Positions 32,759 through 34,074 of a stretch of 64,000 bases of DNA are shown here, piece by piece. Positions within the stretch are counted from its first letter, which is position 1. Every line of letters begins with the position of its first letter. The notes under the pieces were generated by a model. It ran no database searches. It saw nothing but the letters and a program-made list of their open reading frames with translations, and was not told the origin of the DNA. Both the position numbers and the translations under genes were made by a program. Source of the DNA: Candidatus Parcubacteria bacterium (GTDB lineage: Bacteria; Patescibacteriota; Minisyncoccia; Phycocordibacterales; UBA2100); the NCBI GenBank assembly GCA_003599295.1, contig QZJK01000006.1:14681-78680 (forward strand). The letters run 5' to 3'.

Positions 32759-33670
32759 ATGGCCAATCTTAAGTCCATAAAGTCAAAAATACTCTCCTAT
32801 AAAAAGACCGGAACGGTCACGCACGCCATGGAGGCGGTCTCGGCCGTGAAAATGCGGAAAGGCCAGGAACGCGCGCTTTCGGGCCGCGCGTATGCCGCCG
32901 CAGCGCTCTCCGTCATGGAACGCCTCTCCGGCACGGCCGATCTTTCGCGTCATTCACTGATGCAGGAGAGGGAAGGAAAAATCGCGCTCATCGTCATCAC
33001 GAGCGACAAGGGACTTGCCGGCTCCTTGAATAGCGGCGTCGTTCGCAAAGCGGAGCGCGAAGCAGGAATTTCCAAAGACAAGACGATCGTATTCGCTATC
33101 GGCAGACGGGGCGGGGAATACTTTTCTTCGCGCGGGTACGACGTGCGGATGAGGCTGCAAAATGTGAGCGATTCCGTCTCGGAAAGCGATATGCGGGAGG
33201 TCACGGATAAGGTACTCGAATTGCATGAAGCGGGGGAGATAACGAAATGCGCGGTCGTGTATCAGAATTTTATTTCGACGTTTGAGCAGGAGCCGACGGT
33301 ACGGAACATAATCCCCGTACGACCCGAAGCGATGAGAAAAGTAGTGGAAGGCATCCGCCCCGCCAAAGGAAAGTATGCGCCCCAAAAAGGGGGAGAGAAG
33401 GTGCACGCTCCGGCTTCATACACGGTGGAGCCTGACACCGACAGCGTATTGTCGGTACTTCTTCCGAAACTGATAAACATCGCCGTCTTTCATGCGCTCC
33501 TTGAGAACAAAGCCTCGGAGCATTCAGCCCGCATGGTGGCGATGAAAAGCGCGACCGACAAAGCGAAAGAAATGGCTCACAACCTGACGCGCACGTTCAA
33601 TAAGGTCCGCCAAGCCGCCATCACACGCGAGGTATCCGAAATAACGAGCGGCATCGAGGCGATGAAATGA
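32759..33670 (+). CDS. atpG: F0F1 ATP synthase subunit gamma
   Basis: MANLKSIKSKI...ITKAMEAVSA N-terminus and a conserved C-terminal helix. Start chosen at ATG 32759; the ORF track starts at GTG 32747. Confidence 0.85.
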   Translation: MANLKSIKSKILSYKKTGTVTHAMEAVSAVKMRKGQERALSGRAYAAAALSVMERLSGTADLSRHSLMQEREGKIALIVITSDKGLAGSLNSGVVRKAEREAGISKDKTIVFAIGRRGGEYFSSRGYDVRMRLQNVSDSVSESDMREVTDKVLELHEAGEITKCAVVYQNFISTFEQEPTVRNIIPVRPEAMRKVVEGIRPAKGKYAPQKGGEKVHAPASYTVEPDTDSVLSVLLPKLINIAVFHALLENKASEHSARMVAMKSATDKAKEMAHNLTRTFNKVRQAAITREVSEITSGIEAMK

Positions 33671-34074
33671 TGGACTACCCGGGCGTTGGTATAGGCGTGT
33701 ATGTGCGAAAAGACGGGAAAATCCTTTTCGGTCTGCGCAAAGGCAGGTATGCCCCCGGTGATTGGTGCGCGCCGGGCGGAAAAATGGAAATGAACGAATC
33801 GCCGGAAGAGTGCGCACGGCGGGAGACACGGGAAGAAGCTGGAATTGAAATTGAAAATCTGCGTTTTATTACCATCACGAACGACATTCATCCGGTCGGC
33901 ACGCACTACGTCACTATCACGTTCGTTGCCGACTGGAAATCGGGCGACGTACGGGTCATGGAACCCGATAAGTGCGAACAGTGGGAGTGGTTCGCGTGGG
34001 ACGCATTGCCAGAACCGCTCTTTTTGTCCACTAGAAATTTCGTGAATACCGGCTATAATCCTCTCACTATATGA
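33667..34074 (+). CDS. NUDIX hydrolase embedded in the atp operon
   Basis: Nudix box [25 protein letters not shown]. Overlaps the atpG stop and atpD start by 4 nt each. Confidence 0.75.

Follow-up and report, generated by a model that had tools for sequence, protein, structure and literature searches.

The atp operon is among the most conserved gene clusters in bacteria. What, then, is a gene for a Nudix hydrolase doing inside it, between the genes for the gamma and beta subunits, in an ultra-small bacterium of the Patescibacteria? We examined this question in a 64,000-nt stretch of DNA, referred to here as the window, and in the atp loci of related lineages. The elements concerned are as follows:

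20970-21743, plus strand: atpB, a subunit (tblastn, 78% identity to atpB of locus L001; Pfam ATP-synt_A, 1.4e-40)
29820-30047, plus strand: atpE, c subunit (Pfam ATP-synt_C, 5.3e-17)
30183-30632, plus strand: atpF, b subunit (Pfam ATP-synt_B, 1.2e-18)
30680-31168, plus strand: atpH, delta/OSCP (Pfam OSCP, 1.9e-09)
31175-32746, plus strand: atpA, alpha (Pfam ATP-synt_ab, 2.3e-79, with N and C domains)
32747-33670, plus strand: atpG, gamma (Pfam ATP-synt, 2.9e-80; stop codon TGA at 33668-33670)
33655-33658, plus strand: GAGG, Shine-Dalgarno-like, 8 nt before the Nudix ATG and within the 3' end of atpG (read from the sequence)
33667-34074, plus strand: Nudix hydrolase gene of NUDT15/AtNUDX1 type, 135 aa, ATG start (Pfam, PDB, fold, dN/dS, orthologues in the same slot)
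34071-35438, plus strand: atpD, beta (Pfam ATP-synt_ab, 3.7e-72)
35441-35683, plus strand: atpC, epsilon, 80 aa, beta-sandwich domain only (Pfam ATP-synt_DE_N, 2.1e-15)

A distinct gene between atpG and atpD

The genes atpE, atpF, atpH, atpA, atpG, atpD and atpC all score above the Pfam thresholds, and atpB lies about 8 kb upstream of the other atp genes in the window. The first-pass annotation of this DNA described a 135-aa Nudix gene with ATGA overlaps at both ends, and its coordinates are exactly right. The TGA stop of atpG lies inside the ATGA at 33667-33670, where it overlaps the Nudix start, and the ATGA at 34071-34074 contains both the Nudix stop and the ATG of atpD, a 4-nt overlap. ORF analysis places atpG, Nudix and atpD each in a different reading frame, so the Nudix ORF is an extension of neither neighbour; a mis-called extension is further ruled out by the existence of independent homologues and by a high-confidence fold. 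A chance ORF is ruled out by the match to Pfam NUDIX (PF00293; E=2.3e-24, 86.4 bits against a gathering cut-off of 21.1) and by dN/dS values of 0.04-0.2 against the closest orthologues. Judged by those values, the gene is under strong purifying selection. The GAGG upstream of it is a putative ribosome-site-like motif.

Relationship of the protein to NUDT15 and AtNUDX1

The translation contains a complete Nudix box, encoded as follows:

33778-33846, plus strand: Nudix box codons, G38 to I60

The pattern G38-x5-E44-x7-R52-E53-T-x-E56-E57-x-G59-I60 agrees with the superfamily consensus GX5EX7REUXEEXGU. Residues G37, G38, E44, R52, E53, E56 and E57 are unchanged across 50 homologues, and the catalytic residues of the box are also invariant in 27 atp-linked orthologues. 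A phmmer search of PDB sequences returned AtNUDX1 (7.5e-29) and NUDT15 (2e-23), with weaker matches to NudC NADH pyrophosphatases. An AlphaFold2 (AF2) model of the protein, with a pLDDT of 96.2, has the alpha/beta/alpha sandwich fold and superimposes on solved Nudix structures with TM scores of 0.85-0.92; in Foldseek it gave a TM of 0.90 to 5bon and 5gp0, and the top 21 matches were all NUDT15 or NUDX1. With its closest full-length relatives the same by sequence and by modelled structure, the protein is by these measures a NUDT15/AtNUDX1-type enzyme. It is not a MutT orthologue, falling below the NCBIfam equivalog cut-offs (TIGR00586, 37.7 versus 97.9 bits; NF008044, 36.2 versus 148 bits). Homologues of the protein are often labelled '8-oxo-dGTP diphosphatase' by JGI.

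The substrate class must be read with a caveat, since prenyl diphosphates are further substrates of the NUDX1/NUDT15 family (PDB 5gp0, 6ypf, 7r0d). The substrate might be a non-nucleotide or an energy cofactor (prenyl diphosphates, in the manner of plant NUDX1, or ADP-ribose, NADH or Ap4A), with the position in the operon serving that role. The closest solved relatives do include geranyl-diphosphate hydrolases (5gp0, 6ypb/6ypf) and 4kyx, deposited as an ADP-ribose pyrophosphatase, and the NudC matches lean the same way. We nevertheless consider this reading improbable, given that NUDT15 and AtNUDX1, which match best, hydrolyse (d)NTPs as well and that every one of the enzymes accompanying or replacing the Nudix protein in the same operon of relatives (Ham1, YjjX, MazG-like and YfbR-like) hydrolyses (d)NTPs or (d)NMPs.

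A variable slot in the atp cluster

The atp operons of relatives do have a gene between atpG and atpD, a comparison that the first-pass annotation had proposed. More than 20 metagenomic lineages of the Kaiserbacteria-like kind carry, in the same slot, an orthologue with at least 60% identity to the Nudix protein (60-84%), whereas orthologues at or below 57% (55-57%) lie elsewhere in the genome, in unrelated neighbourhoods. In 23 of 25 loci no more than 38 nt separate the Nudix stop codon from the start of atpD, and nine of these 23 have the ATGA overlap.

We took a census of the slot in 61 non-redundant loci of the clade that had been retrieved through atpG alone. At least one house-cleaning nucleotide hydrolase was present in 34 of them, 10 had other inserts and 17 were empty; in more distant Patescibacteria, such a hydrolase was found in one of 65 slots and a Nudix gene in none of the 65. 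The hydrolases are Nudix proteins of several subfamilies, Ham1/RdgB, NTPase_I-T (YjjX) and MazG-like proteins; Ham1, NTPase_I-T, the MazG-like proteins and three further Nudix subfamilies were confirmed by Pfam. The neighbouring atpA-atpG junction of relatives carries a YfbR-like 5'-deoxynucleotidase (also Pfam-confirmed), further Nudix genes and another YjjX. No Ham1 or YjjX gene was found elsewhere in the 64,000-nt window. Hydrolase density was about 200-fold higher in the slot (53 matches in 59.5 kb) than in the flanks (2 in 454 kb), in counts that are not phylogenetically independent and in a flank screen by tblastn with slot-derived queries that under-detects divergent Nudix genes. All 46 of the cargo genes in complete atpG-to-atpD slots have the same orientation as the atp genes.

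The slot is hypervariable in this clade, holding Nudix, Ham1, YjjX, MazG-like or other cargo, or nothing. It is also a generally permissive site, because unrelated genes are found there as well: the PemK toxin, SET, 23S-rRNA-IVP, PaaX-like and DUF7768 proteins, small membrane proteins and helical proteins. The slot might instead be a small defence or anti-defence islet, with the Nudix gene as mobile cargo whose product would act on nucleotides when phages attack. In favour of this, some relatives have PemK toxins and a PaaX/Cas2-like protein in the slot, and the Nudix protein matches the single-gene PADLOC candidate PDC-S07 (2.8e-14). That match is of a generic Nudix kind, weaker than those to Pfam Nudix and to NUDT15/NUDX1, while Ham1, YjjX, the MazG-like proteins and the flanking unknowns had no PADLOC match; no integrase or repeat signatures were seen, and the Nudix gene is vertically conserved under purifying selection. 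We find a defence role scarcely credible.

Unlike a subunit of the ATP synthase, which would be always present and irreplaceable, the Nudix protein is missing from the 17 empty slots among the 61, is replaced elsewhere by Ham1, YjjX or MazG-like proteins and has orthologues outside atp operons. It is not a fixed component of the enzyme and, because those 17 clade members have no insert of any kind, its link to ATP synthase is not obligatory. It could still be a physical accessory or regulator of F1, docked for example on gamma or beta and clearing inhibitory nucleotides at the catalytic sites. The gene order gamma-Nudix-beta with its overlaps might be read in that sense, and the regulatory C-terminal domain of epsilon is absent throughout the group, leaving room for other regulators: epsilon has 80-82 aa in nearly all Patescibacteria loci (77 in one, 84-89 in a few) and 137 aa in L082, the sole locus labelled Verrucomicrobiales. 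We consider an accessory of this kind very improbable in a protein that is interchangeable with unrelated folds, often absent and encoded, in its orthologues at 55-57% identity, in unrelated neighbourhoods; moreover, at 135 aa and a TM of 0.90 it has no surfaces or extensions beyond those of free-standing NUDT15/NUDX1.

Turnover of the slot contents

Two loci whose flanking DNA is 89-96% identical differ in their cargo, L100 having Nudix in its slot and L104 having Ham1. A "cassette swap" from Nudix to Ham1 would account for this, but the L104 spacer weakly resembles the 3' end of Nudix (one 14-nt match to L127, E = 0.22) and a clearer Nudix 3' relic is present in the empty slot of L101. Because of these two traces, differential loss from an ancestral Ham1-Nudix pair appears at least as likely as a swap. 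There are possible weaker Nudix relics upstream of atpD in the Ham1-only loci L008 and L103, and a single Ham1-Nudix insertion in an ancestor, differentially lost afterwards, may account for much of the Nudix and Ham1 signal.

The relics bear on neutral hitch-hiking, in which the DNA after atpG is a safe harbour for any small gene, atpD having its own promoter, and the Nudix gene is functionally unrelated to ATP synthase; the enrichment would then be the legacy of one or two ancient insertions that many of the sampled lineages share by descent. The relics of L101 and possibly of L008 and L103 are what this reading expects, as are the many unrelated genes in the slot and the 17 of 61 loci in which it is empty. 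The operon is, in addition, physically split after atpG in one subclade, and atpB is dislocated in the window. Set against this are, by our own count, about 8-10 separate acquisitions of nucleotide hydrolases; these belong to five unrelated folds, are spread over two junctions and extend to the distant lineages L027, L053 and L055. The resolution of an atpG neighbour-joining (NJ) tree is too weak for rigorous counts of gain and loss. All cargo families annotated as nucleotide hydrolases act on (d)NTP or (d)NMP, and hitch-hiking must also accommodate their roughly 200-fold density over the flanks and the strong selection on Nudix. We regard it as a real possibility, though one well short of even.

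A promoter-like element inside the Nudix gene

The 3' end of the Nudix gene contains a further element:

34032-34059, plus strand: promoter-like element for atpD, TAGAAA, 16 nt, TATAAT (consensus scan, 10/12)

The Tyr-Asn codons in the GYNP motif at the C terminus supply its -10 box, which lies 11-12 nt upstream of the atpD ATG. A TATA(A/C)TC block is invariant before that ATG in Nudix-bearing, Ham1-only, empty and other-cargo relatives, and TAT AAT codons are used in 20 of 21 atp-linked Nudix genes. Over the whole window, 20 of the 51 long ORFs have a -10 box 6-16 nt before the start codon, compared with 2.6% for random sites; the promoter and terminator consensus scan, taken alone, gave site counts at chance level in this region. 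Because TATAAT is conserved even where Nudix has been lost, and because of the window-wide pattern of -10 boxes with short leaders, atpD probably has its own promoter inside the 3' end of Nudix. The conserved box suggests an additional internal transcription start.

The Nudix gene itself lies on the same strand as its overlapping neighbours, with no terminator-like site on the plus strand from 31960 to 35683 (the atpA-atpC stretch), and its co-transcription with atpG is plausible. It had been proposed that Nudix is co-expressed between gamma and beta. Coupling is credible mainly to atpG, because Nudix follows atpG directly, through the ATGA overlap, and has no -10 box of its own. The atpD side of the proposal fares less well, atpD probably having its own promoter at the invariant TATAAT.

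Recruitment of Nudix modules and of other sanitising enzymes

The window holds a second Nudix module, a domain embedded in LeuRS that was also recorded in the first-pass annotation and that we recover at residues 567-686 of the ORF at 43645-47037 (Pfam NUDIX, 48 bits, box intact). Many other LeuRS proteins have an embedded Nudix module too. An exhaustive representative search found relatives of the embedded domain; a word-indexed protein search with it gave no match. From these two cases repeated recruitment of Nudix modules into core machinery had been proposed, and both the atp slot and LeuRS do contain one; the larger pattern, however, is that nucleotide-sanitising enzymes of several unrelated kinds, Nudix among them, have been recruited again and again.

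A proposed house-cleaning passenger in the F1 cluster

Taken as a whole, the observations are best explained by a house-cleaning Nudix enzyme carried as a passenger cistron in a variable slot of the F1 cluster, an account to which we give a somewhat better than even chance. The protein would be a soluble NUDT15/AtNUDX1-type pyrophosphohydrolase, with house-cleaning the most likely job: it would split purine (deoxy)nucleoside triphosphates that are non-canonical or in excess into the monophosphate and PPi. It would not be a structural subunit. Its gene would end an atpE-F-H-A-G transcription unit, and its synthesis would be tied to that of gamma because the gene lacks a separate promoter box and begins with an overlap of the atpG stop, while its last 40 or so nucleotides would double as promoter and initiation region for atpD-atpC. 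The slot would be a lineage-specific variable site in the F1 cluster of Kaiserbacteria-like Patescibacteria that favours enzymes which sanitise nucleotides and whose folds are unrelated: Nudix, Ham1/RdgB, YjjX and MazG-like proteins, with the YfbR-like 5'-deoxynucleotidase at the atpA-atpG junction. The selective logic may be that, in reduced cells with few promoters, the genes for purine-NTP pool hygiene are expressed alongside ATP synthase, the enzyme that would make or burn most of their purine NTP and is itself loose in its nucleotide specificity. Patescibacteria are thought to depend on salvaged nucleotides.

A stronger reading is that ATP synthase and purine-pool sanitation are functionally coupled. 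F1 would make, or be poisoned by, ITP, XTP and oxidised ATP or GTP, and selection would have repeatedly placed enzymes that destroy NTPs, exchangeable for one another and of four or more unrelated folds, inside its gene cluster as an unrecognised 'quality-control module' that possibly acts close to F1. The premise is an F1 with loose selectivity among purine nucleotides and with no inhibitory C-terminal domain on epsilon. F1 has a broad nucleotide specificity (PMC5380711), and ITP interacts with E. coli F1 according to a passage of 10.1101/2022.02.24.481826 that cites Weber and Senior 2001. We judge this coupling unlikely. No description of the arrangement was found in the open-access papers and bioRxiv preprints searched for house-cleaning genes, Nudix and Ham1 included, in atp operons or in Patescibacteria. 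That unrelated enzymes which destroy damaged nucleotides recur in this slot suggests a hitherto undescribed connection between the expression of ATP synthase and the clean-up of nucleotides.

The Nudix enzyme is of an ordinary kind and it is the context that is unusual. The junctions around atpG form a variable slot across a clade of Patescibacteria, one with a preference for house-cleaning enzymes whose folds are unrelated. Were the association functional, it would link energy conversion to quality control of the nucleotide pool, and for a testable reason, the loose purine-nucleotide specificity of F1. The locus also offers a probable case of dual-use coding, in which the codons of a conserved protein motif double as the -10 box for the gene that follows, and suggests that a core operon can be divided into two transcription units. 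Both features would matter for annotation and for expression modelling in uncultured bacteria with small genomes.

Comparison with known enzymes and systems

The nearest known proteins are human NUDT15 (MTH2) and Arabidopsis NUDX1 (NUDT1; PDB 5bon, 5gp0, 6fl4), which have the same fold and box (37-38% identity, TM 0.90, rmsd 1.2-1.7 A across the whole protein). AtNUDX1 also aligns with the C-terminal G-[YF]-N-P motif of the Nudix protein. The known members come from eukaryotic genes that stand alone and act broadly on (d)NTPs and prenyl diphosphates, whereas the present protein, known here from its sequence and model, is bacterial, has only 135 aa and is encoded within the F1 part of an atp operon. 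E. coli MutT, the 8-oxo-dGTP diphosphatase, has the superfamily and a presumed house-cleaning role in common with it but belongs to another Nudix subfamily. RdgB/Ham1/ITPA, YjjX (NTPase_I-T) and MazG, families presumed to remove non-canonical purine NTPs, have folds unrelated to Nudix; none is present in the window, but in close relatives they occupy the same atpG-atpD slot, alone or adjoining Nudix.

Bacterial atp operons have other extra genes, atpI/uncI and the atpQ/atpR of N-ATPase operons, and F1 has its inhibitors, the C-terminal domain of epsilon, the zeta protein of alpha-proteobacteria and mitochondrial IF1. Like the Nudix protein, these are non-core and are expressed with ATP synthase or act on it; they are, however, membrane, assembly or inhibitor proteins, whereas Nudix is predicted to be a soluble nucleotide hydrolase that varies between close relatives and is encoded between gamma and beta, not at the 5' end of the operon. 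Another parallel is the Nudix domain inserted in a class I aminoacyl-tRNA synthetase of candidate phyla, the IleRS of SR1 (Kantor et al. 2013, PMC3812714). There, too, a Nudix module has been taken into the core machinery of bacteria with reduced genomes, as a domain fused within one polypeptide in IleRS but as a separate cistron in the atp operon.

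Position and integrity of the Nudix gene

The 135-aa Nudix ORF reported by the first-pass annotation is present on the forward strand between two ATP synthase genes:

32747-33670, atpG, gamma subunit
33667-34074 (+), Nudix ORF
34071-35438, atpD, beta subunit

Its ATG forms the first three bases of the ATGA at 33667-33670, of which the last three are the atpG stop, and its TGA forms the last three bases of the ATGA at 34071-34074, of which the first three are the atpD start. The three genes occupy three different frames, and the ORF does not belong to either neighbour as an extension. 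Pfam recognises a NUDIX domain in it (2.3e-24) and the c, b, delta, alpha, gamma, beta and epsilon subunits around it; the Nudix box matches GX5EX7REUXEEXGU and is both intact and invariant among homologues.

Judged from its sequence, the enzyme adds a member to a known Nudix subfamily, the NUDT15/NUDX1 type, and is not MutT proper: it scores far below the cut-offs of the curated MutT equivalog models, and the solved structures closest in sequence are Arabidopsis NUDX1 (7.5e-29) and human NUDT15 (2e-23), followed by the bacterial "MutT/Nudix" entries 4kyx and 4dyw and rose NUDX1. An AlphaFold2 model built with 50 homologues as input (pLDDT 96) superposes on NUDT15 and AtNUDX1 with a TM score of 0.90 and an rmsd of 1.2-1.7 A at 37-38% identity. 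The dN/dS ratio is 0.036 and 0.12 against the nearest orthologues, in the related loci L001 and L002 respectively, synonymous sites being saturated with more distant ones. All homologues of the Nudix and atp genes are from Patescibacteria; among named records, MAGs of Candidatus Kaiserbacteria, Paceibacteria and Parcubacteria come closest.

Within a clade, relatives also carry genes between atpG and atpD. Orthologues P0003, P0017, P0039 and P0050 (84%, 70%, 62% and 61% identity) all lie downstream of atpG and directly upstream of atpD, while P0063, P0078 and P0099 (55-57%) lie in unrelated neighbourhoods; we conclude that a widespread Patescibacteria Nudix entered the atp operon in a single lineage. 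In the non-atp context at L088:106-1207, P0099 is about 3 kb from genes for a dCMP deaminase and a Maf-family protein, other nucleotide-pool enzymes. The Nudix stop is at most 38 nt from the atpD start in 23 of the 25 loci that have both genes, nine of the 23 sharing the ATGA overlap of the window.

The atpG-atpD interval as a slot for nucleotide hydrolases

Relatives were found by atpG alignment search, to avoid bias toward Nudix, in one genome per species (L006-L085) and in JGI metagenomes (L090-L169); all are metagenomic contigs. Genes were mapped by tblastn and ORF extraction, and families were called in bulk by tblastn with slot-derived queries, representatives being checked by Pfam. The complete interval was available in 126 non-redundant loci. 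At least one house-cleaning gene, meaning a nucleotide hydrolase of the Nudix, Ham1/RdgB, YjjX or MazG-like families, is present in 35 of them; other inserts occupy the interval in 28, and it is empty in 63.

Contents of the atpG-atpD interval (loci)
Window's clade (atpG at least 58% identical), 61: house-cleaning 34, other insert 10, empty 17
More distant Patescibacteria, 65: house-cleaning 1, other insert 18, empty 46

Arrangements in the 35 house-cleaning loci, found by atpG alone (NudixB, a slot Nudix distinct from the window type)
Ham1 alone: 14
Nudix alone: 9
Ham1 + Nudix: 7
NudixB + Ham1 + Nudix: 1
NudixB + Ham1: 1
NudixB alone: 1
YjjX + Nudix: 1
MazG-like: 1

Pfam confirms the Ham1p_like and NTPase_I-T/YjjX (9.5e-41, 1.7e-40) assignments and recognises three additional Nudix subfamilies; the MazG-like/PRA-PH match is at or just around gathering thresholds. 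All 46 house-cleaning genes counted in complete atpG-atpD slots are on the atp strand. House-cleaning matches, by tblastn with slot-derived queries, number 53 per 59.5 kb in the slot against 2 per 454 kb in flanking DNA outside the operon, a ratio of about 200. The atpA-atpG junction is a second slot, with an insert in 33 of 152 loci: a YfbR-like HD 5'-deoxynucleotidase (4.6e-17) in L007, L100 and L161, Nudix in L006, L053, L095 and L130, and YjjX in L027.

Turnover of the slot

Across atpA, atpG, atpD and beyond, the loci L100 and L104 share 89-96% identity, but their similarity ends at the atpG stop codon and returns 2 nt before the atpD ATG; between these points L100 has Nudix and L104 has Ham1. 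L100 also carries the YfbR-like gene, at its atpA-atpG junction. In Nudix-less relatives the spacers upstream of atpD look like relics of a Nudix 3' end: that of L101, an empty slot, reads AAATTTaatcgaaagtaGGTATAATCCcCTCACTtcTATG where the window has AAATTTcgtgaataccGGCTATAATCCtCTCACTatATG, and the spacers of the Ham1-only loci L008 and L103 translate as GYNRLSL and GYTPASI. The simplest history, read beside an atpG neighbour-joining tree that is poorly resolved, would be an ancestral atpG-(Ham1)-Nudix-atpD order followed by differential loss and independent insertions of other families. In one subclade (L076, L091, L107, L112, L129) the atp cluster is interrupted past atpG, with DprA (opposite strand) and SerRS downstream and no atpD within 5-6 kb of atpG; a hydrolase gene is still joined to atpG in three of the five, Nudix in L076 and L107 and MazG-like in L091. 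The Nudix protein is unlikely to be a structural subunit of ATP synthase, because it is interchangeable with other genes and often absent.

A candidate atpD promoter inside the Nudix gene

Ten aligned loci share an invariant TATA(A/C)TC block 11-12 nt ahead of the atpD start codon, whatever the upstream gene. In the window it coincides with the Tyr-Asn codons of the conserved C-terminal GYNP motif of Nudix, and 20 of the 21 atp-linked orthologues that carry this motif encode the pair as TAT AAT; a -35-like TAGAAA lies 16 nt upstream of the -10 block. The spacer of an "empty" subclade reads TTGATA-17-TATACT-6-ATG. A -10-like hexamer (at least 5 of 6 matches) precedes atpD in 32 of 43 Nudix-less clade members against 19 of 53 distant loci of equal AT content. 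Such a hexamer also ends 6-16 nt before the start codon in 20 of the window's 51 long ORFs, compared with 2.6% for random positions, which suggests that the organism's mRNAs are typically leaderless or have very short leaders. Examples are at 8392, 17990, 22931, 34071, 41484 and 48588; the hexamer often reads TGnTAnAAT. An obvious Shine-Dalgarno motif is missing from most atp genes.

We infer a separate promoter for atpD-atpC, inside the Nudix 3' end, that would give a leaderless or very short-leader mRNA. Upstream of Nudix the DNA is GC-rich, with GAGG 8 nt before the ATG, and no -10 box was found there, so Nudix expression probably depends on the atpG transcript. The coupling to both neighbours proposed in the first-pass annotation would thus be more credible toward atpG than toward atpD. 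Such an arrangement would explain the tolerance of the slot to insertions and deletions.

Why nucleotide hydrolases?

Slot cargo of recognisable function consists mostly of enzymes that break down non-canonical (d)NTPs, or the (d)NMPs that these yield. By our count these represent five unrelated folds and about 8-10 separate acquisitions, which argues for selection on function over chance. Patescibacteria are thought to be reliant on nucleotide salvage. F1 has a broad nucleotide specificity (PMC5380711); an interaction of ITP with E. coli F1 is attributed to Weber and Senior (2001) in 10.1101/2022.02.24.481826. From these points we infer a rationale that appears reasonable, in which sanitation of the pool would be tied to expression of ATP synthase, the main purine-NTP-handling machine. 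Substantial weight must also be given to a neutral reading in which the slot is simply permissive: shared ancestry inflates the counts, many relatives have an empty slot and unrelated cargo is common, including PemK toxins, a SET-domain protein, 23S-rRNA-IVP proteins, a PaaX-like protein, DUF7768, a nucleoside-deoxyribosyltransferase-like protein, small membrane proteins and the helical proteins described below. For a role of Nudix in defence we found no specific support.

Other features of the atp region

20970-21743, atpB, a subunit, about 8 kb from atpE (29820) and the remaining atp genes
28532-29701 (-), predicted 389-aa ORF just upstream of atpE, no Pfam or NCBIfam match
35441-35683, atpC, epsilon subunit
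35749-37722, 657-aa protein, no Pfam or NCBIfam match
37722-38018, RNHCP-domain protein, abutting the 657-aa protein at 37722
38342-39079, flavodoxin-like FMN reductase, third gene after atpC

Unrelated genes separate atpB from atpE (a DAO-type oxidoreductase, a saccharopine-dehydrogenase-like protein, an MFS transporter and a double-GNAT protein); atpB is directly before atpE in L001 and L002. The last three genes listed also follow atpC in L001, L002 and L004, and so may share its expression unit.

Epsilon is a beta-sandwich only, without C-terminal regulatory helices, and has 80-82 aa in nearly all of about 110 Patescibacteria loci (one has 77, a few 84-89) and 137 aa in L082, the sole locus labelled Verrucomicrobiales. 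Many clade members, though not the window, carry rapidly evolving ORFs of about 105-140 aa that are helical or coiled-coil and lack a Pfam match; they follow atpG immediately, ahead of Ham1, or lie at the atpA-atpG junction (examples are L007:6920-7243, L097:5941-6282, L137:1938-2309, L001:4656-4994, L119:4654-5004 and L157:4630-5004). Because epsilon is shortened, these might regulate F1 in the manner of IF1 or zeta.

Comparison with known systems

The first-pass annotation had also noticed a Nudix domain embedded in LeuRS, and this is borne out, with an intact box:

43645-47037, LeuRS, 1130 aa
about 44374-44820, alpha/beta (Ser_hydrolase-like) domain, before the Nudix domain
about 45343-45702, Nudix domain, after the CP1 editing domain, box GGIEDNEAPIEAAIREVREETG

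An exhaustive representative search with this Nudix domain gave 140 matches at E <=1e-10, many of 900-1300 aa; all eight long matches tested are LeuRS with 1-3 Nudix domains, two of them having the hydrolase domain also. Our search of open-access papers and bioRxiv turned up no report of an atp operon, from Patescibacteria or any other organism, that contains Nudix, Ham1, YjjX or MazG genes, and the operon architecture and its recurrent class of cargo are new as far as this literature shows. A Nudix domain within an aminoacyl-tRNA synthetase has been described in the IleRS of SR1 (Kantor et al. 2013, PMC3812714).
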